From positions 44,159 through 108,158 of the forward strand of contig JAWAZZ010000001.1 in the NCBI GenBank assembly GCA_038997305.1: a stretch of 64,000 nt of DNA. The letters are read 5' to 3'. This DNA comes from Candidatus Aenigmatarchaeota archaeon. Its GTDB lineage: Archaea; Aenigmatarchaeota; Aenigmatarchaeia; CG10238-14; SpSt-28. This document shows positions 14,964 through 45,021 of this stretch, in pieces (the stretch's first letter is position 1; each line of letters begins with the position of its first letter). The notes under the pieces were generated by a model, which ran no database searches, was not told where the DNA came from, and was given only the letters and a program-made list of their open reading frames with translations. Position numbers and translations under genes: made by a program.

Positions 14964-15004
14964 TACAAAAAGTATTTATATTTTTTTGTACATAAATTAA
15001 TACC

Positions 15005-15196
15005 ATGATAATTCCAGTTAGATGTTTTACATGTGGAAAGGTAATTGGACATTTATGGGAAGAATATGAGAGAAGAGTTAAGAATGGCGAAGAACCAAAG
15101 AAAGTTTTAGACGAGTTAGGATTAAAGAAGTATTGTTGTAGACAGATATTTATAACACATAGAGAATTAATTAAGGAAATCGCAAAATTTAAATAA
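15005..15196 (+). CDS. rpoN: DNA-directed RNA polymerase subunit N (Rpb10 homologue)
   Basis: [15 protein letters not shown]...CCRQ zinc-binding signature. Length 63 aa. Confidence 0.85.
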
Positions 15197-15444
15197 TGTA
15201 TCCTAGAGATAGGTTAACAAGATTTGAAGTAGCTAGAATTATCTCAGCAAGAGCATTACAAATAGAATACGGAGCACCTTGTTTTGTTGATATTAAAGGT
15301 AATTCTATTCAAAAAGCGAAGGAAGAATTTAAAAGAAAGTTAATTCCTTTAACAGTGAGAAGAAGATTACCTAATGGGGAAGTAGTAGAAGTAGACATAG
15401 ATAAAGCGATAGATAATTGGCTTAAGGAGCACGGTGACGTTTAA
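15196..15444 (+). CDS. rpoK: DNA-directed RNA polymerase subunit K (Rpb6 homologue)
   Basis: LTRFEVARIISARALQIEYGAP matches the RpoK/Rpb6 core. It overlaps the rpoN stop (TAATG). Confidence 0.8.
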   Translation: MYPRDRLTRFEVARIISARALQIEYGAPCFVDIKGNSIQKAKEEFKRKLIPLTVRRRLPNGEVVEVDIDKAIDNWLKEHGDV

Positions 15445-15994
15445 TTAATTTTAAAATAATAAAGATAATTACAATTAGAAATGTTAAGAAAATGATGATT
15501 GCTAAATGGTTAGGGTAAGAGTATTTTCTTTCTTCTTTTATTTTTTCTCCTGGAGTTTCTGTACTTTCGTTTTCTAAAACTTTTAAAGTTTGATTTAGTA
15601 AAACTAGTTTAGCTTTTTCTTTATCGCTAATAAAAATTTTTATTAAAGTAGTGTTTTCCGGAAATTTAAAAACTAAGCTTTTTATTATATAATCTTTTTC
15701 TATTATTTCTTTTCCTCTTTTAATGCTAAAAACTTCTTGAAAAAAATCTTCTTTAGAGTAGTTTAGGTAGACAATTTTTAAAACATTGTTTGAAGGATCA
15801 TAGCAAACAACTTTAATATTTCCGCTATTTAAATAATTTTCGTTTGCGAAATCTAAAAAGTAATTTGCAGTAATTTTAACATCTTCGTTTTTACTTATAA
15901 GAATTTCTAAATAAAGAAACTTATCTGAAGAATAAGAATAATGTATTAAAGTGCTTAAGATTAATAAGGGTATTAATATTAATATTTTTTTCAT
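15422..15994 (-). CDS. secreted hypothetical protein with C-terminal TM anchor
   Basis: Signal peptide MKKILILIPLLILSTLIHYSYS and C-terminal TM LAIIIFLTFLIVIIFIILKLIKR. Start placed at the ATG giving MKKIL, 13 nt from the divergent start at 16008. Confidence 0.5.
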   Translation of the reverse strand: MKKILILIPLLILSTLIHYSYSSDKFLYLEILISKNEDVKITANYFLDFANENYLNSGNIKVVCYDPSNNVLKIVYLNYSKEDFFQEVFSIKRGKEIIEKDYIIKSLVFKFPENTTLIKIFISDKEKAKLVLLNQTLKVLENESTETPGEKIKEERKYSYPNHLAIIIFLTFLIVIIFIILKLIKRHRAP

Positions 15995-16007
15995 AAAATA
16001 TATTCTT

Positions 16008-16339
16008 ATGAAACTTATTTCATCAATCTTTCTAAACTTAATTCTAGCAACTCTAATAGCTATTAGCACTATACTAATAATTTACTTCACTCAATTTTAT
16101 CAAACAAAATATGTAGAAGAATTAGAAAGAATTAGATTTAATCAGCAAGTTTATGATTTAGCAAAAAAATTAGCAAATTGCTTAGGATTTGAATATGAAA
16201 AAACTTATTACTTAGATTATAAAAAAATTGAAGAGTTTAGTAAAATTTATAATGATATAGAACCAAGATGTGCAATTGCAAAAGATTTTGATTATAATGT
16301 TAAAATAATACAATTTGAAAAAGAAGTTAGAAATTATCC
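16008..16339 (+). repeat. second copy of the 332-nt module
   Basis: See 13572..13903. Confidence 0.8.
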
Positions 16340-17798
16340 AATACAAATTGGTGGTGGTTGTGGATGGGCATGGGTTGTTAATAGTGGTTCTGGAGGAATG
16401 CATAGTTCAATCTCCTTAGTTACTTCTGAAGGCTCTGAGTTAAGAAGACATTATACTCATCCAAATAAAGCGGGTAATCCATCTAGAACTGCTGTAGATA
16501 TCGAAGGAAATGTTTGGGTTGGAAATAGAGCAGATGGTACTTTAGTTAAAATCACATTTGACAAAAATAAATGTAAAGGAGCTACTTCTGAAGATAAAGA
16601 TGGTAATGGAAAAATTGATTATAATGAAATGCTTGATTTTTCTTCTGATGGATGTATAGAGATAAAGTTAGATTTAAAATGCAGTTATGTTGGTGTCAGA
16701 GCAGTTTGTATAGATAATGAATCAAAATACGTATATGCCGGTTGTTATAATGATAGGAAATTATTTAAAATTTCTAATAAAGATGGTAGCATAGAAAAAG
16801 TCTGGAATTTACCAGCAACTCCTTATGGATGTGTTGTTGGTAATGATGGAAATGTTTGGATTTCAACAGCTTCATCTATTTTAATAAAGTTAAATCCAAA
16901 TACTGATGAAATTAAAACATTTAGTGTTCCTTTCATATATGGCATTTGGAGATGTTATAATTTAGATTGTGTTGTTTTTTCTGAGTGGACTTTAAATAGA
17001 ATTGCACTATTTAATACGACATCTGAAAAAATAATATGGGAAAGATCTAGCGGAATAAATACAAGAGGAGTTTTTGTCGACGAAAATAATTACATTTATG
17101 CAGTAGGAAGTTCTAGTAATGATATATACAAGTATGATATAAATGGAAATTTAATAAAAGTCGCAAAGACTTGTGGAATACCTACAGGAGTTGCTCAAGA
17201 TGCTTGCGGTTATTTGTGGGTGCAATGTATGGATGGTTATGTTTACATTTTTGATAAAGACTTAAATTTAATAAATTTCTTTTCAATATCTGGAATTCAT
17301 TATACTTATTCAGACTTTACAGGATTTTTATCTAATGCAAAAGTTAGTGTGCCACTAAAAATTGAGGAAAAAATTCTAAAAGTCGAAAGAAAAGAATTTT
17401 CTTTTGGTATGTTAGAAAAAGAACTCGCAGGAATAAGATCTTTTGGTCCAAAAATAAACTTACAAACTTCAATTTCAATCCCAATTTTAATTAAGTACAA
17501 CGAAACTTTTATAGTTGAAGGATTAATGATAATTAATGCATATAAAGGATTTTTAGAAGAATTTTATAGTTTCTTAGACGATATTTGTTCAAAAGATTTT
17601 GATAATTTTGAAATTACAAAACAGTTTTATTTTGATTATAATGTTAAAATTTTAAAAGAAAATGATTATTATAAAATTTGTAGCGAAAATGTTTGTAAAA
17701 AATTAGTTTGTAAGTATGAGATTGAAGAAAAAGAATTTGATAAGGGAGATAATGTAATAAATGTGAGAGTAAGTGAAAGAAAATTAATAATTTCATAA
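16008..17798 (+). CDS. membrane-anchored beta-propeller-like protein with EF-hand-type Ca-binding loop; shares N- and C-terminal modules with 13572..14963
   Basis: The first 110 aa and last 133 aa are identical to the vWA paralog. The middle (GNVWVGNRADGTLVKI, DKDGNGKIDYNEM, repeated NVWIS/YVYA blades) is homologous to the N-terminal half of 38418..40652. The true start is ATG at 16008; the track start is upstream. Confidence 0.7.
   Translation: MKLISSIFLNLILATLIAISTILIIYFTQFYQTKYVEELERIRFNQQVYDLAKKLANCLGFEYEKTYYLDYKKIEEFSKIYNDIEPRCAIAKDFDYNVKIIQFEKEVRNYPIQIGGGCGWAWVVNSGSGGMHSSISLVTSEGSELRRHYTHPNKAGNPSRTAVDIEGNVWVGNRADGTLVKITFDKNKCKGATSEDKDGNGKIDYNEMLDFSSDGCIEIKLDLKCSYVGVRAVCIDNESKYVYAGCYNDRKLFKISNKDGSIEKVWNLPATPYGCVVGNDGNVWISTASSILIKLNPNTDEIKTFSVPFIYGIWRCYNLDCVVFSEWTLNRIALFNTTSEKIIWERSSGINTRGVFVDENNYIYAVGSSSNDIYKYDINGNLIKVAKTCGIPTGVAQDACGYLWVQCMDGYVYIFDKDLNLINFFSISGIHYTYSDFTGFLSNAKVSVPLKIEEKILKVERKEFSFGMLEKELAGIRSFGPKINLQTSISIPILIKYNETFIVEGLMIINAYKGFLEEFYSFLDDICSKDFDNFEITKQFYFDYNVKILKENDYYKICSENVCKKLVCKYEIEEKEFDKGDNVINVRVSERKLIIS
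17368..17766 (+). repeat. second copy of the 399-nt module
   Basis: See 14533..14931. Confidence 0.8.
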
Positions 17799-18476
17799 TT
17801 GCGTTTTCTTATATAATTTGACTTTGTTAATTCTTTTGGTATACATAATGAAGGTAATTATAGCTATTGCTATAATTAGAAGTATAAAAATTGAAATTGG
17901 CGGTATATAATATTCTTTGCAATCTGGATCTTCTGGGCAATTCGGTTCGCAATAATTATCTTTTAAATTTGGACAAATTTTTAATTTACAATCATTGCAA
18001 TTAATTTCATTTTCACCAAGCTTTTTTTCACATACTGAATTTTCATTACATATTTTTGTTTCTAGTATTTTTTGATCAAAATTGAACATTTCAATTTTAC
18101 TTAAATCTTTAAGATATGGAAATCTAAAATATTTTTCTAAACATTCGAATTCTACTTCTTCTCCCTTCATCTCTCCAGTAATAGGATCTATTATTTCTCT
18201 ATGAGTTTTAAAAGATTGTGAAAAATTATATTGCAGCAAAACAGAATTATTAGTAGAGTAGAGAAGTATGGTATAATTTCCAAAACCAATTTTATTTGAT
18301 TCTACATATTCTGGATTTTCAATTATTCCATAATCTATCAAAAAAACAGAATTATTTTTACATATATTTATTAGCAAATAAAATGTTTTATCACTTATTA
18401 TTTTTTCTTGGAAAGAAATTTCTAAGTAAATAGATATTATAAATAAAATTAATTGAGATAATAGTTTGATCTTCAT
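17793..18476 (-). CDS. secreted Cys-rich protein with C-terminal TM anchor
   Basis: Signal peptide MKIKLLSQLILFIISIYL, a CNDCKLKICPNLKDNYCEPNCPEDPDC cluster, and C-terminal TM FILLIIAIAIITFIMY. Confidence 0.5.
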   Translation of the reverse strand: MKIKLLSQLILFIISIYLEISFQEKIISDKTFYLLINICKNNSVFLIDYGIIENPEYVESNKIGFGNYTILLYSTNNSVLLQYNFSQSFKTHREIIDPITGEMKGEEVEFECLEKYFRFPYLKDLSKIEMFNFDQKILETKICNENSVCEKKLGENEINCNDCKLKICPNLKDNYCEPNCPEDPDCKEYYIPPISIFILLIIAIAIITFIMYTKRINKVKLYKKTQL

Positions 18477-18489
18477 AATATAAACTTAT

Positions 18490-19872
18490 TTATCTTATAC
18501 AATATTTCATCCATCTACCTAGGCCAGCAGAATAAGGAGGATTTCCCATAAATCCTTCAGATAAAAACTTATAGGCTGCCGGACCGAATTTTTCCATAGG
18601 TAAACAATAATCCATTATAAATTTAGAAACTTCTGGATGATTGCAATCTGGGCAATTAGGTGCAGGTCCACCAAAAAATGGATAATATAGGCATGCATGA
18701 CAATCTACATTACAATTAACATGACCCAAACCCAATTGATGTCCTAATTCATGAGTAGGTACACAAACACGTTTACTACAGCTATGAGCTATACTTGATG
18801 AGCCATCAGAAGGGATTCCTTGTGCGCATCCACCAGCCCAACCGCCACCAGTTGTTAATGCAACAAATTTATCATAATTAACTCCAAATTTATTCTCCAT
18901 TTTTCTTGCGCATTCTCTTGCTATGTCTATACAATCAGAACAATGGTCATAGCAATCTTTATTAGCAGATTCCGGACAATCTGAAATATTAATTATCCAA
19001 AACCTAACTATATCATCTTTATTCTTACATTCTCTAAATGGAGATACCTCAAGAAAATGCTCAATGAAAGATGTTGCAGCAGATAAATACAAGTTCTCAT
19101 CAGTAATATCTACAGGAACTATAAAGACGTCAAAAGTATCTAAATTTATGCAATCTTTTCCATTCCAAGATTTTCCTGGAGGACAACACGCTTTTCCAGA
19201 TTTGTATGATGTAAAATCTTTTGTAACAGGATTGCAAGTTAAGCCGCTAGAGCATTGATTATTGCAATAACATTCTTCACCTTCTTTTAAATTGTATCTT
19301 TTCGTATTTCCAGTTTCATCTGAGCTTGGATCTTCTGGACAGCATACCGCATCACTTTTAATACAATCATTAGAGTTTTTGCAATTTTCTCTTATGTCAA
19401 CATTGCAATAACCATCGTTTATGCATTGAGGATTTGGACCATAACAATCTTGAGAAGAAGTCCTACATTCTATTGGAGTACAAACATTATCGATTAAATA
19501 ATCTATTTTTCTGCAATCTAAAATTCTAATGACACTCTTTTCTTTTATAATACAATATTTGCCAGTATTATATATTTCTATATCTTGAGTTTTAAAAGGT
19601 AAATAATAAGAATATTCATAATCTTTGTAAAAAACTTTCAATTTATTGTCTTTTATTGTTAAGTTACTATATAAAAATTGGTATTCGTAATAAAAGTATT
19701 CGCTTTTTAATTTTGAAATTCTTTCTATTGTGGAAATGAATTTTTCAATTTCTTCGTTGAATTTTTGTTTTTCTAAACTTTTAGAAAAATTAAATAGAAA
19801 AATCTGAAATGCAGTAAAAAACAAAATTCCAATTACTATTGAAATCGTTATTAAGGAAAAAATATTTGTCAT
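18490..19872 (-). CDS. membrane-anchored metzincin-type zinc metalloprotease with Cys-rich module
   Basis: Exact HExxHxxGxxH motif (HELGHQLGLGH) with a downstream Met-turn candidate FIMDY. N-terminal TM. The Cys module GEECYCNNQCSSGLTCNPV...ACCPPGKSWNGKDC recurs in 38418..40652. Confidence 0.7.
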   Translation of the reverse strand: MTNIFSLITISIVIGILFFTAFQIFLFNFSKSLEKQKFNEEIEKFISTIERISKLKSEYFYYEYQFLYSNLTIKDNKLKVFYKDYEYSYYLPFKTQDIEIYNTGKYCIIKEKSVIRILDCRKIDYLIDNVCTPIECRTSSQDCYGPNPQCINDGYCNVDIRENCKNSNDCIKSDAVCCPEDPSSDETGNTKRYNLKEGEECYCNNQCSSGLTCNPVTKDFTSYKSGKACCPPGKSWNGKDCINLDTFDVFIVPVDITDENLYLSAATSFIEHFLEVSPFRECKNKDDIVRFWIINISDCPESANKDCYDHCSDCIDIARECARKMENKFGVNYDKFVALTTGGGWAGGCAQGIPSDGSSSIAHSCSKRVCVPTHELGHQLGLGHVNCNVDCHACLYYPFFGGPAPNCPDCNHPEVSKFIMDYCLPMEKFGPAAYKFLSEGFMGNPPYSAGLGRWMKYCIR

Positions 19873-20390
19873 GAAATTCTTAATATTAGGTAACCAATTT
19901 CCTCATCTGGCATAGGTATTGGCAAAACATAACTTTTTATCGTTTCTGAAGGTTTTAAATTATAACCATAGATTTCGTATAAGCTTTGGTTTTTATATAT
20001 AACTAGCTGCCATCTTTCTTTACCAATCATATTATCTAACATAGGATAAAGCAAATCTGAAGAATTATATGCTCCTAAAGCCATTCCATAATAAACAATT
20101 TTTCCTAAACCAAGATCTTCTTTAACTTTTTCTCTTTCACTTTCTTTCCATTTATTTAGAGTTAGTAGCGCATCTATCGATGTTTGTAAATAAGTTTTTT
20201 CTAATGTAGGTAATTTGGCTGTATAAACTGAAGCTAATGTTTTTAATGCTAAATCATCTATAACAGAAAATCTATGAAAATATTGGGATTTTGTTGAGAG
20301 TTGTGAAATGTAATACAATGTAATTACTATAACAATAGATGAAATTATTAAAATAATACCAATCCATATAATTTCACTTTGAAGTTTCAT
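19869..20390 (-). CDS. small protein with N-terminal TM helix (possible pilin-like or minor filament subunit)
   Basis: MKLQSEIIWIGIILIISSIVIVITLYY followed by a soluble ~140-aa domain. Co-oriented and overlapping the metzincin gene. Confidence 0.4.
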   Translation of the reverse strand: MKLQSEIIWIGIILIISSIVIVITLYYISQLSTKSQYFHRFSVIDDLALKTLASVYTAKLPTLEKTYLQTSIDALLTLNKWKESEREKVKEDLGLGKIVYYGMALGAYNSSDLLYPMLDNMIGKERWQLVIYKNQSLYEIYGYNLKPSETIKSYVLPIPMPDEEIGYLILRIS

Positions 20391-20419
20391 AAAATTAAAA
20401 TTAGTAAGGATATAATATT

Positions 20420-21748
20420 ATGTTAAAGTTACAAGTAGCACAATTTGCTTTTATAATATTTGCTATACTTTTTTTTCTTTTAAGTTTATATTTGTCATAT
20501 TTTCAATTTGGAAAAAGAATAGAAGAAATTAGCAATATAAGAACTATTGACATTTTTGAAAATTTGAAACATATTATAGATGGGTATGCGAAATTAGCAC
20601 TTTATTATGCTACAACTCAAAATTTTAGAGAAGAAAGTCATGTATGGATTCAAAATGGATTCAATCCGCTAGAGTTTGAACTTTTAAAAGAATGCAAAGA
20701 AAATTACACTACATTTTTCTTTAATCAATATCTTTCAAAATTTAATGTTAATTTACCAGTTAATATAGAAATTAAAAAAGTAAACAGATGCTTTTTTGAT
20801 TTAAAAGAAGAAAATGTTTTTAGTGGCTTGAACGATGAGGGAAATTTTTCTGTTTTTTGCAATTCTACTAACGTAAAAATTTATATAAATGAAACATTTC
20901 TTTTAGACTTTATTAATTCTTCTAACTTTATAACTAACAACAGGTATTGGTATCTTTATAGAAAGTTTTATGAATGGGCTAAAGAAAATGCAGATAAATT
21001 TGTGGCTTGTGTCTGTTCATTAGTAAAATCTTGTGCAACCTGTAATGCAATAGAAACATGTTATAAAGGCTTATTAGAAAGTTTGAGAAATAAGTTTAAA
21101 GATGATAAATATGTTGAATGTAATACAGATCCTACTCCTTGTTGCTATCAAGAATATGGCGATTTATGTAAATTACCAGATGTTTGTCAAGCATGGCAAA
21201 ATAGATGTTATGTTGCAGATAAGTTGGATTGTCCTATACTAGAAGAATCAGATGAGAAAAAAACACACGGCTATAAAAATCATAACGAAAACAACTACTT
21301 AATAGAATTTTCTAAAAATGTAGTTCTTTCTAATCCTCAAAATTATGTTACCGAATTTTATTGTGAAAGTTGTATATGGCAAGAGAATAGAATAGAAACT
21401 CATAGAAGATATTATTGTATAGATTATAAGTACTATGAATCAAGTCCTTCTGGTCCAAAACCAATAGAATTTACTGCGATAGTTTATGCTGGCTTAAAGA
21501 ACTATGTTTCTTGCATTTCTAAAGTCAAAAATAAGTGCGAAAGTATAACCACAGAATGTGAAAATTGTAATGATGTTGGAGGTAAAACTATATGTGATAA
21601 ATGTATTTTAAAAAACTGTGAAAAAAAGGGATGTAAAGAATGTTGGTTAGAGTGCGAAGAATGTGAAGTTAAGAAATTAAATGGAGAATTCGAAGTTATC
21701 CAGTGTAAAAAATGTAAGAATAAGCCAGATGATGTCTGTCCAAAATGA
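20420..21748 (+). CDS. membrane-anchored Cys-rich protein
   Basis: N-terminal TM with more than 35 Cys. C-terminal CENCNDVGGKTICDKCILKNCEKKGCKECWLECEECE cluster. Confidence 0.5.
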   Translation: MLKLQVAQFAFIIFAILFFLLSLYLSYFQFGKRIEEISNIRTIDIFENLKHIIDGYAKLALYYATTQNFREESHVWIQNGFNPLEFELLKECKENYTTFFFNQYLSKFNVNLPVNIEIKKVNRCFFDLKEENVFSGLNDEGNFSVFCNSTNVKIYINETFLLDFINSSNFITNNRYWYLYRKFYEWAKENADKFVACVCSLVKSCATCNAIETCYKGLLESLRNKFKDDKYVECNTDPTPCCYQEYGDLCKLPDVCQAWQNRCYVADKLDCPILEESDEKKTHGYKNHNENNYLIEFSKNVVLSNPQNYVTEFYCESCIWQENRIETHRRYYCIDYKYYESSPSGPKPIEFTAIVYAGLKNYVSCISKVKNKCESITTECENCNDVGGKTICDKCILKNCEKKGCKECWLECEECEVKKLNGEFEVIQCKKCKNKPDDVCPK

Positions 21749-22131
21749 AAACAATAGAAATAATATTAGTTTTAATTTTTTCAGTTTTTGGATTAGTACT
21801 TCTATTAAATTATATCTTTGGAATAAAATTTATTAAATTTGAAAGCGAAGAATTGACATTTCTAAAAAAAGAGGATTTTTTGTTTAAGATTAATGAGTTA
21901 GTTTCTAATTGTTTAAATAAAAAGACTAACAAAAGAGAAATTTGCTATTACGTCTATTACAAAGGTTTGCAAGATGTTTCTTCTGAAGAAATACTTTCAA
22001 AAATAATTCCTGAAAACAGAAATAAAATTAAAATAACTTTCGAAAAATTGATTAGCAACGAAAAAATTATAATAATTTATGTTCCTTTTGATTTGGTTGA
22101 AATTGTAAAATATTCTGAAATATCAAAATAA
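21745..22131 (+). CDS. small protein with N-terminal TM helix (pilin-like candidate)
   Basis: MKTIEIILVLIFSVFGLVLLLNYIFG plus a ~100-aa domain. Start overlaps the upstream stop (ATGA). Confidence 0.4.
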   Translation: MKTIEIILVLIFSVFGLVLLLNYIFGIKFIKFESEELTFLKKEDFLFKINELVSNCLNKKTNKREICYYVYYKGLQDVSSEEILSKIIPENRNKIKITFEKLISNEKIIIIYVPFDLVEIVKYSEISK

Positions 22132-22135
22132 TTTT

Positions 22136-24193: not shown

Positions 24194-24194
24194 T

Positions 24195-25020: not shown

Positions 25021-25023
25021 AAT

Positions 25024-25458: not shown

Positions 25459-25459
25459 A

Positions 25460-25993: not shown

Positions 25994-26035
25994 AATGTAT
26001 TTAAATTTTTGAATAGAAATATTTTATCTAATTTT

Positions 26036-26881: not shown

Positions 26882-27003
26882 CTACAGGAACTAACTTCGG
26901 TAGAGAAATTATTACAGACGCGAGTTATGCAATAGTTTTTTTACCTTTACCATTTTCTGATCGTGCCGCCGATATTTCTTTAGTTTTCTCTAATGTTCAA
27001 GAT

Positions 27004-31651: not shown

Positions 31652-31688
31652 TATGGATAAATATTTATTGTTAAACAAAATAATAATT

Positions 31689-35339: not shown

Positions 35340-35379
35340 TCAAAAAATATATATGAGGTATAAGATATTATAATTTATT

Positions 35380-36087
35380 ATGTTGAACATCAGAGGCTTA
35401 AAAGGTTTTACTGCGATAGAAATTGTCTTTCTAATTTTTATTTTAATAGTTGTCGTGTTAGTTGTAATTCAAATGATTACTAGATATGTTAATCCAGGAA
35501 AAATTAATCCTTATATTGAAAATATAGAAGAATTAGCGAAAAAGGATTATATGAGGCAATATTGTGATAATTTGTGCAATTCTATTAAAACTGCTACTAG
35601 TGAAAGAGAAAGATTGTTTGCAATGGCAAGATGGTGTATGGAAAATATAAAAGACAGAGGAAAAGATTATATAGATATAATTGAAGATGGAGTAAAAGGA
35701 TTTTATGTTATTGGTGGTTTACCTTATTGTGAAGCTGGCACATATTGTTTTCATTTCTTCTCTTGCGATGTAGGAATAACTTTGGATTTAAAGGAATGTA
35801 GGAGAATTCTTTGCGAATATTATACTCAACAATTGGGAGATACAAAAAAGGCTAGCGAGGCTATAGTAAATATCATAAACTGGGGAAAATGTAATGTCAA
35901 CAAAGAACAATTATCTGGTAAACCATTGCTTTACTCAAGCGCTAGATGGTGGTATGATAAATATTTTAACATAACAGATGAAAATGGCGAACTCAAAGAT
36001 TTTTGTAGCGTTCTCATAGCTGGTGGAGATATAGAGGGAATAGTTAGCGAAGGTGAAGAGGAAGGCTCTCCTCCAATGCCATCATAA
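35380..36087 (+). CDS. type IV pilin-like protein (class III signal peptide) with Cys-rich globular domain
   Basis: MLNIRGLKG|FTAIEIVFLIFILIVVVLVVIQ has the canonical prepilin cleavage motif (Gly-1, Phe+1, Glu+5, then a ~20-aa hydrophobic helix). A ~190-aa domain with about 10 Cys follows. Confidence 0.55.
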   Translation: MLNIRGLKGFTAIEIVFLIFILIVVVLVVIQMITRYVNPGKINPYIENIEELAKKDYMRQYCDNLCNSIKTATSERERLFAMARWCMENIKDRGKDYIDIIEDGVKGFYVIGGLPYCEAGTYCFHFFSCDVGITLDLKECRRILCEYYTQQLGDTKKASEAIVNIINWGKCNVNKEQLSGKPLLYSSARWWYDKYFNITDENGELKDFCSVLIAGGDIEGIVSEGEEEGSPPMPS

Positions 36088-36154
36088 TCATAGAAGAAAA
36101 AATGAAACCTTTTAATGAATTTATTTATTATTTTCTAAATATAATTATTTTAAA

Positions 36155-38380: not shown

Positions 38381-38417
38381 ATAAAATCGAATTTAATATA
38401 CACACAAAATAATATTT

Positions 38418-40652
38418 ATGAGGAGAGTATTTTTTGTTTTTTTAGCTTTATTTTTAGTATTTTCATTATCAAATTTTTCTTATTCTTCGGAATGCGCAGC
38501 ATACTTGCTTAATTCTTGTGAATTTTCAGATAGGTATGAGTGCAGTTCTGTAAGTTTAGTCAGCGAAAGCGGCTTAGAATATAGAAGACATTACATAAGT
38601 GATAAAGATATAGCCCCTATTTCAATTGCTATAGATAGATATGGAAATGCTTGGATAGGAACAAAGGAAAATGAAATAGTTAAAATAAATTTTGATTGCA
38701 AAAATAATATAGATTCTGACGGTGATGGAAAAGTGAGTATTAGTGAAATGAATGACATAAAAGACGATAAGTGTATAGAGCTAAGATTAAAACTTCCTTG
38801 TAAAAAAATTAATTCTGTTTGCATCGATTTTATTAATGATTTTTTGTATGCTGGATGTTATGATTCAAAACTATTTTATAGAATATCTTTAGATGGCGAA
38901 ATTTTAAAAAGTTGGAAATTAGATTATGGACCTTTTAATTGTGTTGTAGACGATGCATCTAATGTTTGGATTTCTACATTGTCAAAAAACTTAATAGAAA
39001 TAAACTTTGAATCAGATAAACCAGAATATTATAAAGTTAGTGACAAAACATATAGTATTTCTAAATGTAAAGATAAAGATTGTCTAATAATAACTTCTGA
39101 AGAAAGTGGCAAAGTATTAATATTTAACACATCATCTAAAAAGGTAACTTTAGAGAGGAAAATTTCTTCTTATGCAATTTCTTCCATTTCTGATGATAAT
39201 TTTATTTATTTGTTGGATAGCAAAGAGGGGAAAATATACAGGCTCGATTTTAATTTAAACATATTGAATAATTTAGATATATGTAAATGGCCAATATCTG
39301 TTTCTATTGATTCTTGTAATAATGTTTGGATTATTTGTAGCGAGGAGTTATTAATATTATCTAAAGATTTTTCGAAAATAAACAAATATTCTATATCTTC
39401 TTCCAGGTTTTTTATTTCTGATTTTACTGGGTATTATTCTAATGCAAATATAAGAATAGAGCAAAAAAGTTTGCAAAAATTCAGAGATAACGATGGCAAA
39501 TGCGAAATAGATAAGGGAGAAAATTGTGCAACATCTCCTAATGATTGTAGTTGCGGAAATGGTAAAATTTGTTGTATTAACGATCCAAAAAAAGATGAAA
39601 GGGGTTGTACAAACAGAAAAGCTAAAGAAGGAGAAGAATGTTATTGTAGCTCTCAATGTTTAGATAATCTGAATTGCAATCCGGTAGCTCCAAATTTCAA
39701 TAAATATAGTAGAGCTTGTTGCCCTGCCGGAAAAGTTTGGAATGGAACACATTGCACAGAAAGCGATTTACTTAGTTTTTGTCCTAAAGATACTAACTGT
39801 AAATCTTTTTGGCCGAACAAGCAAGGAAAATTATTATCTATAAACGAAGAAAATTATGCTTGTGATTTATTTGAAGTTTGTCATCCATATGTTCAAAGTA
39901 TAGCAAGAGAAGCCTTTGAATGTTGTTCAAAGGAGTGCAATTCTAATTGTCACTCTTATTGTAAAGAAGCTTTAGAATATTCTGGTTATAACAAAGAAAA
40001 AACTTATGAAAGATTAAAGTTTTGTATGGGACTATACATAACTTCTGGATTTGGCCCAGCAAAAAGATTTATGATAGGTTATAATGATGCTGAAATTTGT
40101 TGTGGAGCGAAATATTTTCCAGATAATAATATTAGAGATGTTTTAGAAGGTGTTTGTAAATCTGCTTATGGGGATAGTTTTATTGGCAAATGCGAACCTA
40201 AAATAGAAAATACTGGTCTAAAAGATTTAGAATGTAAAGAAGCAGTAAGTAAATATCCTTTGGGATGGAAAAGCGATAATAATATGAAAGAAAATAGCTG
40301 TATATTCTCTGATTTGCCTGCTCATGTTACTCTAAACTTTATAAAAACTGGAATATGTGTAGATTATTCTGTTGCGTTAACTTCTGCATTAAGAGCTGCT
40401 GGGTATTCTTCGAATGAAGTTTATACTGTTGTGGCACCTGGACATGCTTATAATTTAGTTCTATTTCCTCTAAATGAAAAATATACTATAGTAGATACTA
40501 CTGCCAATTATCCAAATAATTGGCGTCCGGGTCAGCAGCCAGGAAAGTATAACTTTGGAAATATTATGAAAAGTAGATGTGAATACGAGCAATGTATGAA
40601 TGATAATGGTATATTAACTTGTCCACCCAAAAATTTAGTTTATGGTTGCTAA
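38418..40652 (+). CDS. secreted beta-propeller-like + Cys-rich + C-terminal transglutaminase-like (Cys-His-Asp) domain protein
   Basis: Signal peptide MRRVFFVFLALFLVFSLSNFSYS. The N-terminal half is homologous to the middle of 16008..17798, including the EF-hand loop DSDGDGKVSISEM. The Cys module GEECYCSSQCLDNLNCNPV...ACCPAGKVWNGTHC is shared with the metzincin. The C-terminal triad is GICVDYS ... GHAYNLV ... IVDTT. Confidence 0.65.
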   Translation: MRRVFFVFLALFLVFSLSNFSYSSECAAYLLNSCEFSDRYECSSVSLVSESGLEYRRHYISDKDIAPISIAIDRYGNAWIGTKENEIVKINFDCKNNIDSDGDGKVSISEMNDIKDDKCIELRLKLPCKKINSVCIDFINDFLYAGCYDSKLFYRISLDGEILKSWKLDYGPFNCVVDDASNVWISTLSKNLIEINFESDKPEYYKVSDKTYSISKCKDKDCLIITSEESGKVLIFNTSSKKVTLERKISSYAISSISDDNFIYLLDSKEGKIYRLDFNLNILNNLDICKWPISVSIDSCNNVWIICSEELLILSKDFSKINKYSISSSRFFISDFTGYYSNANIRIEQKSLQKFRDNDGKCEIDKGENCATSPNDCSCGNGKICCINDPKKDERGCTNRKAKEGEECYCSSQCLDNLNCNPVAPNFNKYSRACCPAGKVWNGTHCTESDLLSFCPKDTNCKSFWPNKQGKLLSINEENYACDLFEVCHPYVQSIAREAFECCSKECNSNCHSYCKEALEYSGYNKEKTYERLKFCMGLYITSGFGPAKRFMIGYNDAEICCGAKYFPDNNIRDVLEGVCKSAYGDSFIGKCEPKIENTGLKDLECKEAVSKYPLGWKSDNNMKENSCIFSDLPAHVTLNFIKTGICVDYSVALTSALRAAGYSSNEVYTVVAPGHAYNLVLFPLNEKYTIVDTTANYPNNWRPGQQPGKYNFGNIMKSRCEYEQCMNDNGILTCPPKNLVYGC

Positions 40653-41322
40653 AACGTTTTTATTTATCTTTTTGCTATTGATTTTTTCTAGCTTTGTTTA
40701 TTCTTGTATAAATGTTAATAAGACTTCTAATGTAACTATAGCAAAAACTAACGAAGCAATTGAAATTAAAATATTTATAGAAAACAAATGTGAAAAAGAT
40801 AAAGAGATTACAATTGTTGAGGACGTTTTTGGTGACGTTATTTATCCTAGAGAAAATTTAGTCTTTTACAATACTTCCGAAAAAGTTTTTATTTGGAGAT
40901 CTCCTCAATTGATTTGGAAAAATATTAACTTGGAGGCAAATCAGAAAATAAGCATTAGCTACGTAATTTATTTTGATACAGTAGATAAATTTGTAATTCC
41001 TCCTACAAAGGTTTTAGATGAAAGCGGTAATGTTTATAACTCTAATTCCATTGAAATAAAAATTGAATGTAATAGGAATGGGATGTGTGAAAAAATGTAT
41101 GCAGAGAATTATGTAAATTGTCCAGAGGATTGTAAAGTAAGTAGTGAAGATGGTATTTGTAGTGGGTATGTTAATGATCCTGACTGTAAGACTCAAATAA
41201 AAACAGAAGAGAAAAAGGAAGAAAATTTTTTATTCTACGTTTTCGTAATATCTTTAATTGTTTTATCTGTTTTGCTTGTGTTATACAGATTTGTTATAAG
41301 AAAAACTTTAACTAAATCTTAA
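40642..41322 (+). CDS. secreted protein with C-terminal TM anchor
   Basis: Signal peptide MVAKTFLFIFLLLIFSSFVYS and C-terminal TM FLFYVFVISLIVLSVLLVLYRFVI. Overlaps the upstream gene by 11 nt. Confidence 0.5.
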   Translation: MVAKTFLFIFLLLIFSSFVYSCINVNKTSNVTIAKTNEAIEIKIFIENKCEKDKEITIVEDVFGDVIYPRENLVFYNTSEKVFIWRSPQLIWKNINLEANQKISISYVIYFDTVDKFVIPPTKVLDESGNVYNSNSIEIKIECNRNGMCEKMYAENYVNCPEDCKVSSEDGICSGYVNDPDCKTQIKTEEKKEENFLFYVFVISLIVLSVLLVLYRFVIRKTLTKS

Positions 41323-41357
41323 AATTTTAATAATCGGGTTTTTATAAATTATTATTT

Positions 41358-43775
41358 ATGGCGAGAAAAATTCATTACTTCTTATTCCTTATTTATTTTC
41401 TATTTTTAATTACTAGTGTTGGATTATCAGATAGTTACTCTTTAGAGCTTAAAAAAGGATGGAACCTAATTTCTTTACCACTAAAAAATATAAAAGTTGA
41501 AAACGTGGAGTGTGAAATTAAATCTATTTGGTCATATGAAAACGGCAAATGGAAAAAATTGAGTAATATTAATCAGTTAGTTTCTGGTAAAGGATATTGG
41601 ATTTATGTTAGAAGTGCTACATGTGATATTGTTATCTATGGAGATAAAATAAATTATAATCCAATAGAAAAATTAAGTAAAGGATGGAATTTAGTTGGAA
41701 TAGGTTCTAATGAAATATATGTTAAAGACTTAAAAAATGTTTGTAAAAATATTACTAGAATTTGGGGTTATGAAAACGGCAAATGGATAAAATTAAATGA
41801 TGAAGATAAATTAGTTCCTGGTAAAGGATATTGGATATATAGTAGAGATGAATGTGATTTGCAGCAAACATCTCAAAATGAAAAATTATGTAAAATAGAG
41901 TCTGTTTCTACAAGTATAAATGAGATAAATGATTGCGATAAAGAGCAGAATATAAGACTCGTAGTTAAATTAAGTGGAGATTGTAGCAATAATATAGTTA
42001 AAATTAAAGAAATAAATCAAAATATCGAATGCAAAATTGATAAAGATGAATGTAATATAGTAATAAATAATCCTAAACAATATGATGGCAAAACTTTGAA
42101 TTTTAGGGTTTATCTTGATGATAAAGATCTGAATACAGAAATAAAAATAACTGTAAAATGTAATAAGGAGTCTCAAGTTTGTAAATCTGGTCAAACAAAA
42201 TGTGAAAATAACAAATTGTACGAATGTGTTAATGGACAATGGCAAGATAAAACTCCTTCATGTCCACAAGATCAACAGTTTGTATGTCTAGATCAAGCTC
42301 GCGGAGAATGTAAAGCCTGTGAGTTTGGTCAAACAAAATGTGAAAATAATAAGATGTATGTTTGTGTAGATGGCAAATGGAAAGAAATATCTCCACCTTG
42401 TACAATTGGAGAAAATTTTGTTTGTATAAATGATAAGCAAGGTGAATGCAAACCTATAGAAACATGTCAGTCTGGACAAATAAAATGTGAAGGTAACAAA
42501 TTCCTCATTTGTATTGATAATAAGTGGATGGGTACATATGTTCCACCATGTCCAGTTTATACTAATATTGAAGTTCCTAGATTCGAGTGTGTAAATAATA
42601 TGACGGGAGTCTGTAAACCTTCAGAATCATCTTATAGAGTTACTGATTTTGAGGTCAAATGTATAAAAGAAATAAATAAGATTTTTTTGGTTAGAAAAGA
42701 TAATGGAGCTTATATAGAGATTTATCCTCAATGTCCAAGTGGTTATTCATTTGTTTGTATTAATGATAGAGATGGAAAATGTGTTCTAAGCGATGCTTCC
42801 CAAATATGTAAAAATAGTGAAACAAAATGTGAAAATGATGAACTTTTCGTTTGTGCTGGAAATAGATGGACTAAGGTAACATTTCCTTGTGATGAATGCG
42901 AATATTTTGTTTGCAAAAACGATAAAACAGGAACTTGTGCTAAGCTAACTACTAAATGTCTTAACAATAAGAATATTTTGTTGAAATGTGTAGGAGGAGA
43001 AAAATATTGGTGGGAAAAAGTCAATATAACATGCGAAAACAATCAGAAATTTGTTTGTACAAATTATACTAGTGGAGAATGCCTTAAGATGAAGGACACC
43101 AAAATAACTATAGAAGTTTTAGATAATGGTGGAGATCCATATTATGGTATTTTAAGGATTGTTGTTAATAAATTGTTAACTCCGAAAGAATTTTGGGAAA
43201 ATATTAGGAGAGAAGAAGATACATTTTTAGTTGGGAAAGGTGAAAAGATAGAGTTCGAAATTTCAGATTTTCTGAAATTCGCTGATATTGCTATAAATTC
43301 GGAACATACATGGACTATAAAAGTTACAGATCCTTTCGGAAACGTTAAAGTTTGTAAAGTTAATAAAGATTTGAGATGTAGAATAGGATATGAACCTGCT
43401 GATGAAATTATACTTGAAGTATTAGATGTAGAACTTCCAAAGGACTTGAAAAATGTAGATCCTTATTCTGTTAGAGAACAGTTTTACATATATCTGATAG
43501 ATGATTGGATTATAAATAAGTATAATACTAAATATGAAAGTTATCTTAAATGTATGACATCATATTTATCTAAGGGTGAAACTTATAGATGTAAGCTTTA
43601 TGGGAGTCCTTATTATGGTGTTAGAATAACTACGTATGCTGTTAGGTTAAACTGGGTAGTAAGAGTTACAGATCCTTTTGGAAACGTTAAAGTTTGTAAA
43701 ATAAATTATAAAAACAGTTGTGAAATAAATCTCAATCCTTTATATGAGATATTTAAAAATTTAAGAGAAAAATAG
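41358..43775 (+). CDS. giant secreted Cys-rich modular surface protein (2 GWNL repeats, about five ~45-aa Cys6 repeats, C-terminal duplicated VTDPFGNVKVCK module)
   Basis: Signal peptide MARKIHYFLFLIYFLFLITSVGLS. Repeats as listed below. The C-terminus carries WTIKVTDPFGNVKVCKVNKDLRC and VVRVTDPFGNVKVCKINYKNSC. Confidence 0.65.
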   Translation: MARKIHYFLFLIYFLFLITSVGLSDSYSLELKKGWNLISLPLKNIKVENVECEIKSIWSYENGKWKKLSNINQLVSGKGYWIYVRSATCDIVIYGDKINYNPIEKLSKGWNLVGIGSNEIYVKDLKNVCKNITRIWGYENGKWIKLNDEDKLVPGKGYWIYSRDECDLQQTSQNEKLCKIESVSTSINEINDCDKEQNIRLVVKLSGDCSNNIVKIKEINQNIECKIDKDECNIVINNPKQYDGKTLNFRVYLDDKDLNTEIKITVKCNKESQVCKSGQTKCENNKLYECVNGQWQDKTPSCPQDQQFVCLDQARGECKACEFGQTKCENNKMYVCVDGKWKEISPPCTIGENFVCINDKQGECKPIETCQSGQIKCEGNKFLICIDNKWMGTYVPPCPVYTNIEVPRFECVNNMTGVCKPSESSYRVTDFEVKCIKEINKIFLVRKDNGAYIEIYPQCPSGYSFVCINDRDGKCVLSDASQICKNSETKCENDELFVCAGNRWTKVTFPCDECEYFVCKNDKTGTCAKLTTKCLNNKNILLKCVGGEKYWWEKVNITCENNQKFVCTNYTSGECLKMKDTKITIEVLDNGGDPYYGILRIVVNKLLTPKEFWENIRREEDTFLVGKGEKIEFEISDFLKFADIAINSEHTWTIKVTDPFGNVKVCKVNKDLRCRIGYEPADEIILEVLDVELPKDLKNVDPYSVREQFYIYLIDDWIINKYNTKYESYLKCMTSYLSKGETYRCKLYGSPYYGVRITTYAVRLNWVVRVTDPFGNVKVCKINYKNSCEINLNPLYEIFKNLREK
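41445..41862 (+). repeat. tandem pair of GWNL aromatic repeat modules (coding)
   Basis: LKKGWNLISLPLKN...IWSYENGKWKKL...GKGYWIYVRSATCDI and LSKGWNLVGIG...IWGYENGKWIKL...GKGYWIYSRDECDL. Confidence 0.7.
42180..43090 (+). repeat. array of ~45-aa Cys6 repeats, C..GQTKCENNK.Y.C..G.W......C.....FVC......GEC (coding)
   Basis: About 5 copies. The first copy is about 92% nt-identical to 34537..34680 in the other giant gene, compared by eye. Confidence 0.6.
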
Positions 43776-43781
43776 CTAAAA

Positions 43782-44237
43782 TTATCTTTTACTTCTTTGT
43801 TTATGTCTTCTAGATCCTCTACTACTTGCACCTTTTCCACTAGAATGATGTGGCTCATTCATTCTATAATCTCTTTTTAATAACCAAGGATCGAAAGAGT
43901 GGAATAATTCTTCTAATTTTTTATTTCTTACTATTCTCAATAAGGCTTTGGCAATTGCTTGTCTAATTGCATCTGCTTGACTTACTAATCCACCACCCTT
44001 AACATTAACTTTTATTTCATATTTTGGTAATATGTCTTTTATATAATCTTCGCTAATCATAAAAACTTCTCTTATTCTCCATCTTAGAGTTTCTGTCCCC
44101 CAAACATTTAATGGGTATGAATTAATTCTAATTTTTAGTTCAGAATTCTCTCTCTCTTTTAACTTAAAAGTTACTCTTGCAACAGCTGTTTTTCTCTTCC
44201 CAACTTCATGAACTATTTTTGGTAATTTTGTTACCAT
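43782..44237 (-). CDS. rps9: 30S ribosomal protein S9 (uS9)
   Basis: VHEVGKRKTAVARV, KGGGLVSQADAIRQAIAKAL, and an Arg/Lys-rich tail ending SKR. Confidence 0.9.
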   Translation of the reverse strand: MVTKLPKIVHEVGKRKTAVARVTFKLKERENSELKIRINSYPLNVWGTETLRWRIREVFMISEDYIKDILPKYEIKVNVKGGGLVSQADAIRQAIAKALLRIVRNKKLEELFHSFDPWLLKRDYRMNEPHHSSGKGASSRGSRRHKQRSKR

Positions 44238-44659
44238 CTTTTCTTAGCTCCTATAGCTAATGCTATTTCTTCTAAAGTCATATATCCAACTTTAACTAAA
44301 TCATTAGCTGTTTTTACTTTTACATCCATAATTTTATCTTTATATTCTTCTGGTAAACCATAAAAAATTTTCAAATTTTTTAGTGCAACTTTTCCTCTAT
44401 ATGTTTTATATGGTAGCATTCCTCTAACCATTCTTCTAAAAATTTCATCCGGATATCTTGGATAGAAAGGACCTTTATATGGATCTCCCCTTTCTCTTCT
44501 CTTCTTAAATTCTTCTATAATATCTTCTCTATCTCCACTAATAACGGCCTTTTCTACATTAACAACGATAACCTTATTACCTTTCAACAATTCTTTAGCA
44601 ACAAAACTAGCTAATCTTCCAGCGATTTTATTAGTTGCGTCTATAACTATCTCTTTCAT
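44231..44659 (-). CDS. rpl13: 50S ribosomal protein L13 (uL13)
   Basis: VIDATNKIAGRLASFVAKELLKGNKVIVVNVEKAVISG. Confidence 0.9.
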   Translation of the reverse strand: MKEIVIDATNKIAGRLASFVAKELLKGNKVIVVNVEKAVISGDREDIIEEFKKRRERGDPYKGPFYPRYPDEIFRRMVRGMLPYKTYRGKVALKNLKIFYGLPEEYKDKIMDVKVKTANDLVKVGYMTLEEIALAIGAKKRW

Positions 44660-45021
44660 ATTATAATTCTTACATTACTTCCTTTAGGATTTTTTTCTAC
44701 TAACTCTTTTATGCTCATAATTTCTATACCAGATTTCTCTAATTTTAGTTTTGCTGCTTTTGAAAATCTCCATGCAGCTATTTTTATTTTTTTAGTTACA
44801 TTTCCAACACTCAAAACCTTTCCTGGAACCAAAACAATTTCTCCATCTTTAGCATATCTATCTATTTTATATAAATTAACTTCTACTCTTTTTCTTGTTG
44901 GTTTGCTTAATAGTTCAGCTACATATTTCCAAATCTTTGCTTTATTCTTTTTGCTAGCTTTTTCTAAGTAAACTATTAATTTCCTCAAGTATGGATTTGT
45001 AGGACCAGTAGGTTTTACCAT
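44656..45021 (-). CDS. rpl18e: 50S ribosomal protein L18e (eL18)
   Basis: PTNPYLRKLIVYL...IWKYVAELLSKPTRKRVEVNLYKI...VPGKVLSVG. This is the canonical L18e-L13-S9 gene order. Confidence 0.85.
   Translation of the reverse strand: MVKPTGPTNPYLRKLIVYLEKASKKNKAKIWKYVAELLSKPTRKRVEVNLYKIDRYAKDGEIVLVPGKVLSVGNVTKKIKIAAWRFSKAAKLKLEKSGIEIMSIKELVEKNPKGSNVRIII

Follow-up and report, generated by a model that had tools for sequence, protein, structure and literature searches.

A conserved archaeal cluster of ribosomal protein and RNA polymerase genes split into two facing halves in an Aenigmatarchaeota clade, and the variable surface-protein genes between them

In archaea the alpha-operon/L18e cluster reads S13-S4-S11-rpoD-L18e-L13-S9-rpoN, and rpoK and eno often come next (Tirumalai et al. 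2023, PMC10833476). In Asgard archaea rpoN is detached from rpoD-L18e-L13-S9, and the ribosomal protein clusters of some DPANN metagenome-assembled genomes (MAGs) are split (PMC10833476). The 64,000-nt stretch of DNA from a hot-spring Aenigmatarchaeota genome analysed here (the window) involves the same five genes, L18e, L13, S9, rpoN and rpoK, with rpoN likewise detached and the ribosomal protein cluster split. Unlike the published cases, however, rpoN-rpoK has acquired a conserved new partner, a lone upstream 23S rRNA gene, as well as a displaced uL24 gene; the two halves stay close together and convergent; rpoD, S11, S4 and S13 are gone from the region upstream of L18e, and eno is 14 kb off. 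A second point of reference is the reduced symbiotic archaeon Nanoarchaeum equitans, whose operons are scrambled, whose ribosomal protein genes are dispersed and whose rRNA genes are unlinked. The window likewise comes from a DPANN genome that is small and AT-rich, its 23S rRNA gene is unlinked, and its universal clusters are broken into fragments that each have a promoter-like element, but here the break is partial: L18e-L13-S9 and rpoN-rpoK are each intact, and members of the genus keep the local gene order. Finally, population genomics of free-living prokaryotes has revealed flexible genomic islands, in which surface and cell-envelope genes vary between strains.

All five genes are recognisable in the window, each with a Pfam match above the gathering score, and their identities, coordinates and strands are those given in the initial annotation. 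On the minus strand lie rps9 (43782-44237; Ribosomal_S9), rpl13 (44231-44659; Ribosomal_L13) and rpl18e (44656-45021; L18e), whose reading frames overlap across 43782-45021. On the plus strand lie rpoN (15005-15196; RNA polymerase subunit N/Rpo10, 63 aa; RNA_pol_N, 1.1e-30) and rpoK (15196-15444; subunit K/Rpo6, 82 aa; RNA_pol_Rpb6, 3.8e-7); a protein homologue search returned 104 homologues of the latter, and those with names are annotated as subunit K. The end of rps9 (43782, minus) and the start of rpoN (15005, plus) are 28.8 kb apart on opposite strands, and the S9-rpoN adjacency is missing; rps9 meets an 805-aa gene in a convergent junction with 6 nt between the two stop codons (43776-43781). 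Upstream of L18e the window has a divergent DsbA-like gene, with rpoD, S11, S4 and S13 absent there, and downstream of rpoK it has a convergent membrane-protein gene and no eno. The enolase gene, which in other archaea usually comes after rpoK, lies at 59432-60607 (plus; Enolase_C, 5e-48, and Enolase_N), 14.4 kb beyond rpl18e, and adjoins apgM (58230-59435; PhosphMutase, 2e-28). The S9/805-aa junction recurs in five contigs from independent assemblies (L001-L005), one of which (L001) is 99.7% identical to the window over 10.4 kb and belongs to the same species, and rpoN-rpoK is found with the same flanks in four Logan contigs (L006-L009). The split into two facing halves is confirmed as real.

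Ancestral contiguity of the five genes, which the initial annotation had taken as the rule in most archaea, is supported by a survey of 35 archaeal loci: the gap from S9 to rpoN is below 200 nt in 24 of them, including five Aenigmatarchaeota, and the cluster is intact in most other archaeal phyla sampled. Canonical contiguity is also supported by published gene orders (PMC10833476). Within Aenigmatarchaeota, L18e-L13-S9-rpoN is unbroken in L013, L014, L015, L019 and L021, with rpoK directly after rpoN in the first three. The best S9 matches to the window come from Aenigmatarchaeota MAGs from Yunnan hot springs. The phylum has broken the S9-rpoN junction in several different ways: rpoN-rpoK is unlinked from S9 altogether in L094, L096 and L102, adjoining IleRS/FeS-assembly genes far from S9 in the latter two, and it adjoins ArgRS in L104 and L106. 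Free-standing LAGLIDADG genes occupy the S9-rpoN junction in L100 and L105, and such genes might be a cause of its fragility.

The comparison genomes are all MAGs or metagenome contigs, and their kinship was judged from the identity of short proteins and 23S rRNA fragments. Genus-level relatives share the layout of the window, 23S rRNA, rpoN, rpoK, a gap, and then S9, L13 and L18e on the opposite strand. The rpoK-to-S9 gap spans 28.3 kb in the window, 15.6 kb on a 397-kb MAG contig (JAVYPJ010000001.1, on which loci L090 and L011 overlap) and 3.1 kb in L091. On the 397-kb contig rpoK lies at 294552-294800 (plus) and S9 at 310393-310845 (minus), their products being 88% and 78% identical to those of the window, and the upstream genes match as well (TRM, arginase, ABC transporter and 23S). 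L091, whose DNA is 98% identical to that of the 397-kb contig, reads 23S-rpoN-rpoK-690aa-uL24-59aa-<S9<L13<L18e; its gap contains no surface-protein genes and nothing besides a 690-aa membrane protein, uL24 and a 59-aa remnant. L091 and the 397-kb contig differ by three indels (6.3, 1.7 and 4.6 kb), the flanks of which are 98% identical. The compact gap of L091 was considered as the ancestral state and rejected, given apparent gene remnants that make it probably derived by deletions: L091 matches a stretch of L090 covering part of a 204-aa gene, where no gene is called in L091, and has a 122-nt match (79.5%) to the 5' part of the homologue in L011 of a 235-aa gene described below.

Other relatives retain parts of this arrangement. 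In L093, 23S-rpoN-rpoK is followed by a block matching 15.4-25.1 kb of the window, and in L012 (about 83% DNA identity) S9, the 235-aa gene and uL24 fit into 1.4 kb where the window spans 17.4 kb. L094, with a 23S rRNA gene 96% identical to that of the window, keeps 23S-rpoN-rpoK but has no S9 within 10 kb, and carries HTH/S_layer_C-GlmS between rpoK and uL24. The S9 side is unchanged: the window, L010, L011 and L099, which is more distant, all have an amino-acid permease gene upstream of L18e, and in the first three the DsbA-like gene lies between permease and L18e. Since relatives with smaller gaps have the same split, these gene orders show the loss of S9-rpoN adjacency to be older than the lineage-specific surface-protein genes, and not caused by them. 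The initial annotation had supposed that a surface-protein island was first inserted next to rpoK and that one inversion then separated the halves. The arrangement does fit an inversion with a breakpoint in the S9-rpoN spacer, but neither the supposed sequence of steps nor a role for the island is supported: relatives are split across 15.6 kb and across 3.1 kb, and rpoN-rpoK is apart from rps9 without any island in L091, and unlinked in L094, L096 and L102.

On its other side, rpoN-rpoK has a stable neighbour. The lone 23S rRNA gene of the window (10479-13504, plus; Rfam LSU_rRNA_archaea, 2594 bits) has counterparts whose 3' ends lie directly upstream of rpoN in L090, L091, L093, L094 and L095, as seen by blastn, and blastn and spacer alignment give an uninterrupted spacer of about 108 nt. 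With 23S about 108 nt 5' of rpoN in all genus-level relatives, what is conserved is the 23S-rpoN-rpoK linkage. The window has this spacer split into 67 and 41 nt, again 108 nt in total, by a gene for a 463-aa secreted or membrane protein with a VWA domain (13572-14963, plus; Pfam VWA, 9e-8), a lineage-specific insertion. A beta-propeller gene at 16008-17798 carries near-identical N- and C-terminal modules (13550-13903 versus 15987-16339, 98.3%; 14533-14931 versus 17368-17766, 100%). The 41 nt left before rpoN (14964-15004, plus) contain a TATA-like element, TATTTATATTTTTT, at 14972-14985, 19 nt short of the ATG; the same five relatives conserve the sequence from this element to the ATG, suggesting a promoter; the motif matches the window six times against four expected, and is not statistically enriched. 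Promoter-like TATA elements also precede uL24 and L18e.

The claim that the cluster is split exactly at the borders of the island has to be qualified: the VWA surface gene is outside the interval, and uL24 and a block conserved in relatives are inside. With the VWA gene between 23S and rpoN, rpoN-rpoK is embedded among surface-protein genes and not at their border. Moreover, whatever lay between the halves had been called the island, which makes the agreement of the borders partly circular.

The island itself is not a single insert and consists of three layers. The first is a clade-wide core, made up of 15.4-26.4 kb, where uL24 lies, and of a pilin-like gene at 35.4 kb. Synteny by tblastn with L093, L090/L011, L010 and L012 delimits a conserved core at 15422-26008 on both strands, and because its order is shared with these relatives it is no recent insert. 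It encodes a membrane protein (15422-15994, minus), the beta-propeller secreted protein (16008-17798, plus), an 8-TM protein of 685 aa (22136-24193, plus), Cys-rich proteins and several small proteins with an N-terminal hydrophobic helix. Pfam matches of the core ORFs are mostly empty or weak, and sequence searches of Pfam, NCBIfam and PDB gave nothing usable for the 685-aa protein and other core ORFs. The uL24 (L24P) gene (26009-26401, plus; TIGR01080 rplX_A_E, 157 bits against a cutoff of 47.65; Pfam Ribosomal_L26 and KOW), the true start of which is probably the ATG at 26036, is displaced from the spc cluster and has the orientation of rpoN-rpoK. The three genes are contiguous in L096, L097 and L098, rpoK and uL24 are linked in L094 and L091, and in the window, L011, L012 and L091 alike uL24 is found between rpoK and S9 and reads in the direction of rpoK. 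The pilin-like gene (35380-36087, plus) encodes 235 aa with a type IV prepilin-like N-terminus (KGFTAIE...) and a weak ComGE N-terminal match (E = 0.003); its homologue is immediately convergent with rps9 in L010, L011 and L012 (tblastn, 59-80% identity), and in L012 it follows within about 0.7 kb of uL24 (blastn and tblastn against the window). Prepilin features in the region comprise this G|FTAIE-like N-terminus, N-terminal helices in six small ORFs and weak ComGE/ComGF and HofC matches; no Pfam match to a T2SSF platform protein or a PilB/FlaI ATPase was obtained for the interval ORFs scanned.

The second layer amounts to about 16.5 kb of lineage-specific paralogous secreted-protein genes, all on the plus strand. 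Those at 26510-35339 (123, 1194, 359 and 1241 aa) share N-terminal and Cys-rich repeat modules (D1, D4-D10), have weak Ig-like matches and are absent from L012. Those at 36155-43775 (741, 744, 226 and 805 aa), with N-termini resembling signal peptides and a Cys content of 3-7%, occur in L001, from the same species, but not in L010, L011, L012 or L091. A fragmented paralogue of the surface-protein genes sits between L13 and S9 in L010. The third layer is the single VWA gene on the far side of rpoN.

The usual traces of mobile elements were sought around this region. Pfam scans of the interval ORFs found no transposase, nor any integrase or recombinase family among ORFs at 13.5-43.8 kb; no tRNA target lies at the borders, the only tRNAs of the window being at 50.3 and 54.0 kb; and a repeat search gave no att-like flanking direct repeats, the direct repeats being internal paralogue modules. 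Inverted repeats or skew changes near 14.97-15.0 and 43.78 kb had been proposed as signs to look for. A repeat search of 13-46 kb detected no inverted pair linking these breakpoints; the sole border-related pair, I4 (14965-14999 and 45021-45055, 74%), is AT-rich and TATA-like, joins the upstream regions of rpoN and L18e and is no stronger than eight other AT-rich inverted pairs in the region. GC skew shifts only with gene orientation (mean +0.26 for plus-strand and -0.16 for minus-strand genes), and it was rejected as a marker of recent inversion since it tracks the coding strand, without a replication-strand signal able to date an inversion. GC content at 27-40 kb is 0.28-0.33, compared with 0.24-0.29 in the remaining sequence outside rRNA, a small shift that could come from Cys/Gly/Thr-rich proteins. 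The interval does vary among close relatives: 26.5-35.3 and 36.1-43.8 kb are missing in L012, and the three indels distinguish L091 from L090/L011.

The history that we favour, as a reasonably probable account, is an old, small local inversion of rpoN-rpoK(-uL24), with the surface-protein genes accreting afterwards. The rps9-rpoN link would have been lost before the genus-level clade of the window diversified, when a segment that began at rpoN and comprised rpoN-rpoK, and probably uL24 too, was inverted, with one breakpoint in the S9-rpoN spacer of a few nucleotides and the other next to the 23S rRNA gene. The product would be 23S>rpoN>rpoK>(uL24)> <S9<L13<L18e, each fragment apparently with its own TATA-box promoter; an inversion of the rpoN...uL24 segment predicts uL24 between rpoK and S9 and co-oriented with rpoK. 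Secreted, pilin-like and Cys-rich surface-protein genes may then have piled up, been lost and recombined in the convergent gap, which would have grown by accretion from a few kb to 28 kb, with nearby insertions in the 23S-rpoN spacer of the window genome and between L13 and S9 in L010. That relatives share the split, that the island is composite and variable, and that mobile-element and inverted-repeat signatures are absent is directly seen, and the surface-protein genes arrived piecemeal; that the original event was an inversion and not a transposition, and how long the inverted segment was, we infer. No outgroup was found with interval genes after rpoK in uninverted order, and L014 and L015, with intact clusters, share no interval genes with the window, so that inversion is read from orientation and proximity only.

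Less probable, if a serious contender, is a transposition in which rpoN-rpoK(-uL24) was excised and re-inserted 3' of a 23S rRNA gene that happened to be near rps9, the facing orientation being incidental. Gene order is highly fluid in Aenigmatarchaeota (the 35-locus survey; PMC10833476), rpoN-rpoK has many unrelated contexts there, and those of L096 and L102, next to IleRS/FeS-assembly genes, fit transposition as well as inversion, with ArgRS as a further neighbour in L104 and L106. L094, with 23S-rpoN-rpoK and no S9 nearby, points the same way, and its layout requires either extra rearrangements or an ancestral layout other than assumed. Against this, at least four genomes of the clade have the halves 3-28 kb apart and oppositely oriented, the S9-side neighbourhood is undisturbed, and a single inversion accounts for both facts. 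Quite improbable is an island inserted 3' of rpoK in an intact cluster and followed by one inversion of about 28.8 kb (15.0-43.78 kb). Inverting 15005-43781 does formally put rpoN directly after rps9, as had been pointed out, and in a weaker form, what followed rpoK before an ancient inversion may have been the conserved core and not the entire island; but relatives with gaps of 15.6 and 3.1 kb show the convergent split as well, L012 is split yet lacks the 16.5 kb of large surface-protein genes, the surface-protein gene at 13572-14963 is outside the inverted segment, and the breakpoints are without inverted repeats. A misassembly that misplaced rpoN-rpoK via the near-identical direct repeats flanking it (354 nt, 98.3%; 399 nt, 100%), within which the short-read rpoN-rpoK contigs end at 1.1-1.4 kb, is very unlikely, given that a stretch of 4.3 kb contains the two copies of each repeat, so that every other path would still leave rpoN-rpoK between 23S and the core, that the order 23S-rpoN-rpoK-core-S9 was assembled independently in the 397-kb L090/L011 contig, L093, L091 and L012, and that the S9/805-aa junction stands in five assemblies.

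The region resembles flexible islands in its fixed position between conserved anchors, in content that varies at 98% identity (L091 versus L090/L011) and between species, and in paralogues that share modules. It differs from them in having no integrase, tRNA or att-like repeat, in anchors that are translation and transcription genes, and in insertions even inside a ribosomal protein operon (L010) and in the 23S-rpoN spacer (window). We tentatively suggest, as a possibility short of an even chance, that the rpoK/uL24-rps9 gap and the 23S-rpoN and L13-S9 spacers form a lineage-specific hotspot in which modular secreted, pilin-like and Cys-rich surface-protein genes are repeatedly gained, lost and recombined; examples are the gap range of 3-28 kb, the 12.6-kb difference at 98% identity, and the paralogues with 98-100% identical ends and swapped VWA and beta-propeller cores.

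The split in the window is ordinary gene-order scrambling in a small symbiotic archaeon, one more break of a conserved ribosomal protein and RNA polymerase cluster in DPANN, where breaks are common, and it carries little weight alone. It cautions that island borders should not be read off one genome, and the 23S-rpoN-rpoK(-uL24) linkage provides a synteny marker for this hot-spring Aenigmatarchaeota clade. If the hotspot is true, the region would be a flexible island for host interaction, with essential translation and transcription genes as its anchors. The variable surface-protein genes could bear on host attachment in these symbionts.

In this genome the archaeal L18e-L13-S9-RpoN-RpoK gene cluster is split into two halves that face each other. 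Pfam matches place rpoN (15005-15196) and rpoK (15196-15444) on the plus strand and rps9 (43782-44237), rpl13 (44231-44659) and rpl18e (44656-45021) on the minus strand, just where the initial annotation had located the five genes. Upstream of rpoN lie a 41-nt spacer and, before that, a gene encoding a 463-aa VWA-domain protein; at the other border, the stop codon of a convergent 805-aa gene is 6 nt from the end of rps9. The split is real, as independent assemblies contain both junctions. One NCBI MAG contig (99.7% identity across 10.4 kb) and four Logan contigs carry the S9/805-aa junction, and four Logan contigs carry rpoN-rpoK with flanks as in the window. Enolase, the usual follower of rpoK, is encoded at 59432-60607 on the plus strand and no longer sits beside it; its gene adjoins a co-oriented apgM (phosphoglycerate mutase), the pair occupying 58230-60607, 13-15.6 kb past rpl18e. 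In L014, a relative with an intact cluster, the neighbourhood of the cluster includes homologues of the beta-CASP (window 60599-61870) and SpoIIM-like (63277-63852) genes, suggesting that the rearrangements were local.

The S9 protein, used to scan one genome per species, groups the window with MAGs of Candidatus Aenigmatarchaeota (DPANN) recovered from Yunnan hot springs. Gene order in the fetched loci (MAGs or metagenome contigs, numbered L) was determined by tblastn with the five window proteins. L18e-L13-S9-rpoN is contiguous in five Aenigmatarchaeota (L013, L014, L015, L019 and L021), with rpoK following rpoN in the first three. The S9-rpoN distance is below 200 nt in 24 of 35 archaeal loci, which span Thermoproteota, Bathyarchaeota, Thermoplasmata, Altiarchaeales, Micrarchaeota and Nanoarchaeia; most of the remaining 11 loci belong to Aenigmatarchaeota or to Nano- and Woesearchaeota, and one is from an Asgard archaeon. 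Published work (PMC10833476) gives S13-S4-S11-rpoD-L18e-L13-S9-rpoN as the canonical order in archaea and reports frequent detachment of rpoN in Asgard archaea and split clusters in some DPANN MAGs. The gene-order survey and the published work thus support ancestral contiguity of the five genes, a premise of the initial annotation that holds, and its loss in these groups is not unusual.

The decisive comparison was that of RpoK homologues and the contigs carrying them. In the window, 23S, the VWA gene, rpoN and rpoK face S9, L13 and L18e across a rpoK-S9 gap of 28.3 kb. On the 397-kb contig that holds both L090 and L011 (RpoK 88% and S9 78% identical to the window), a leftward TRM gene precedes rightward 23S, rpoN and rpoK, the leftward S9, L13 and L18e follow after a gap of 15.6 kb, and the flanking genes on either side match those of the window. 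L091, with the same RpoK and S9 identities and 98% DNA identity to L090/L011, has a gap of 3.1 kb: 23S, rpoN and rpoK are followed by a 690-aa membrane protein, uL24 and a 59-aa remnant before the leftward S9, L13 and L18e. The two forms differ within the gap by three indels, of 6.3, 1.7 and 4.6 kb, the shared DNA being 98% identical, and the difference is strain-level loss or gain of pilin-like and surface-protein genes; since L091 keeps apparent remnants of deleted genes, its compact form is probably derived by deletion. L093 (RpoK 91%) carries 23S, rpoN, rpoK and then the block of window 15.4-25.1 kb, the contig ending before S9. L012 (~83% DNA identity to the window) runs from S9 through a 235-aa gene and ~0.7 kb to uL24 and the block back to a 685-aa gene, with a uL24-S9 distance of 1.4 kb versus 17.4 kb in the window. 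The split, which the initial annotation had tied to the surface-protein island between rpoK and rps9, is therefore old and common to relatives lacking the surface-protein genes, in which no island occupies the junction; the island accreted later, piece by piece and variably, and is not an insertion that preceded the split. L094, a JGI contig (3300005801) with RpoK identical to that of L093 and 23S 96% identical to the window, has a leftward HTH/S_layer_C gene, GlmS, uL24 and a leftward L23 downstream of rpoK, and S9 does not occur within 10 kb. In L099, which is more distant, rpoK is likewise followed by the HTH/S_layer_C-GlmS pair; the context in L094 (ancestral remnant, inter-lineage recombination or chimeric contig) is unexplained.

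The gene for uL24 (26009-26401, probable start ATG 26036; TIGR01080, 157 bits) is solitary in the window, apart from the L14-L24-S4e-L5 (spc) cluster. The window, L011, L012 and L091 have it between rpoK and S9, oriented like rpoK, and it is linked to rpoK in L094 and L091. As it immediately follows rpoK in L096, L097 and L098, the rpoN-rpoK-uL24 linkage seems to be derived within this part of the Aenigmatarchaeota. On the S9 side, L18e is preceded by a permease gene in the window, L010, L011 and even the more distant L099, with a DsbA-like gene between the two in the first three. At least four genomes have the halves convergent and 3-28 kb apart. A single small inversion of the rpoN-rpoK(-uL24) segment explains the placement of uL24, the conserved S9-side neighbours and the facing, nearby halves in one event, and we regard it, with later accretion into the gap, as moderately likely. 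It would have broken the DNA within the S9-rpoN spacer and beside the 23S gene, leaving a convergent gap that would later have been filled.

The main rival, transposition of rpoN-rpoK to the 23S flank, is possible if doubtful, and draws on the several unrelated contexts of this pair elsewhere in the phylum: rpoN-rpoK adjoins IleRS and an FeS-assembly gene in L096 and L102, is without S9 nearby in L094 and L104, and in L106, L105, L099 and L100 is co-oriented with S9, with 0.8-9 kb of unrelated genes between. In the account of the initial annotation, the island came before a single 28.8-kb inversion in this lineage; inversion remains a reasonable mechanism, but this timing is very unlikely given the age of the split and its presence in relatives without surface-protein genes. 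No inverted repeats were found at the breakpoints so proposed, and GC skew merely follows gene orientation. The sole border-related inverted pair joins the AT-rich, TATA-like stretches that precede rpoN and L18e, and its strength is not above that of eight other inverted pairs in the region. Misassembly of the window, against which the independently recovered junctions speak, is extremely improbable.

G+C content in the window is 24-30% except in the lone 23S rRNA gene (10479-13504), which has ~60% G+C versus 26% for the genome; no 16S or 5S gene occurs within the 64 kb. These features are typical of thermophiles whose rRNA genes are unlinked. The 23S gene of the window lacks a 657-nt insertion that the 23S gene of L093 carries (476-1131, at about window position 12669) and that encodes a LAGLIDADG homing endonuclease. 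Free-standing LAGLIDADG genes or fragments lie directly after rps9, at the S9-rpoN junction, in L100 and L105.

Each fragment may have its own promoter and a leaderless transcript. A TATA-like element, TATTTATAyTTTTT, ends 19 nt before the rpoN ATG in the window and is conserved across the clade in the alignment; comparable elements precede L18e and the probable uL24 ATG at 26036. Across the window the TATA motif is not enriched (6 matches versus 4 expected).

The island is composite, with three layers. The first is a core common to the clade (15.4-26.4 kb plus the 235-aa gene, 35380-36087), which includes, in uL24, a genuine ribosomal protein gene; nearly all core products have a hydrophobic segment at the N-terminus, and KGFTAIE, a motif like that of type IV prepilins, opens the 235-aa protein. 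Six small ORFs (119-177 aa) at 19869-25993 encode a hydrophobic helix at the extreme N-terminus and are accompanied by the 685-aa protein with 8 TM segments; together with the prepilin-like protein they suggest, from sequence, a pilus-like or adhesion locus. Pilus-related matches are weak (ComGE/ComGF and HofC only), and no pilus-type ATPase was seen among the island ORFs. The second layer, ~16.5 kb of large genes (26510-35339 and 36155-43775), is missing from L012; its products (226-1241 aa, plus one of 123 aa) have an N-terminal module and Cys-rich repeats in common. The module, KGWNLISLP...YENGKWKKL...GKGYWIY, is duplicated among the large secreted proteins (31776-32193, 36269-36680, 41451-41865), and the repeats (C.SGQTKCENNKLYEC) reach 94% nucleotide identity between genes (34501-34671, 42145-42855), which points to recent recombination among the paralogues.

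The third layer, the VWA gene (13572-14963, plus strand), sits outside the interval, inside the 23S-rpoN spacer, and the island thus extends past the rpoN-side border at which it had been taken to end. This spacer is ~108 nt in L093, L094 and L095, and 67 + 41 = 108 nt surround the VWA gene in the window. The VWA gene and a beta-propeller gene (16008-17798, 596 aa) differ in their cores and are near-identical at their ends: the N-terminal modules (13550-13903 and 15987-16339) match at 98.3% over 354 nt and the C-terminal ones (14533-14931 and 17368-17766) at 100% over 399 nt. Direct repeats hence bracket the essential rpoN-rpoK pair, and short-read assemblies break within them. The pattern resembles cassette-style domain swapping or gene conversion. 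In L010 (JAWBAK010000001.1, 7726-9947, minus strand) a fragmented paralogue of the surface-protein family separates rpl13 from rps9 and interrupts the r-protein operon itself. The island showed no integrase, transposase, tRNA or att-like flanks.

The split adds a new case to a known phenomenon, the fragmentation of ribosomal and RNA-polymerase gene clusters in DPANN archaea, and its general interest is low; the surface-protein region, variable and modular, is the more interesting lead.
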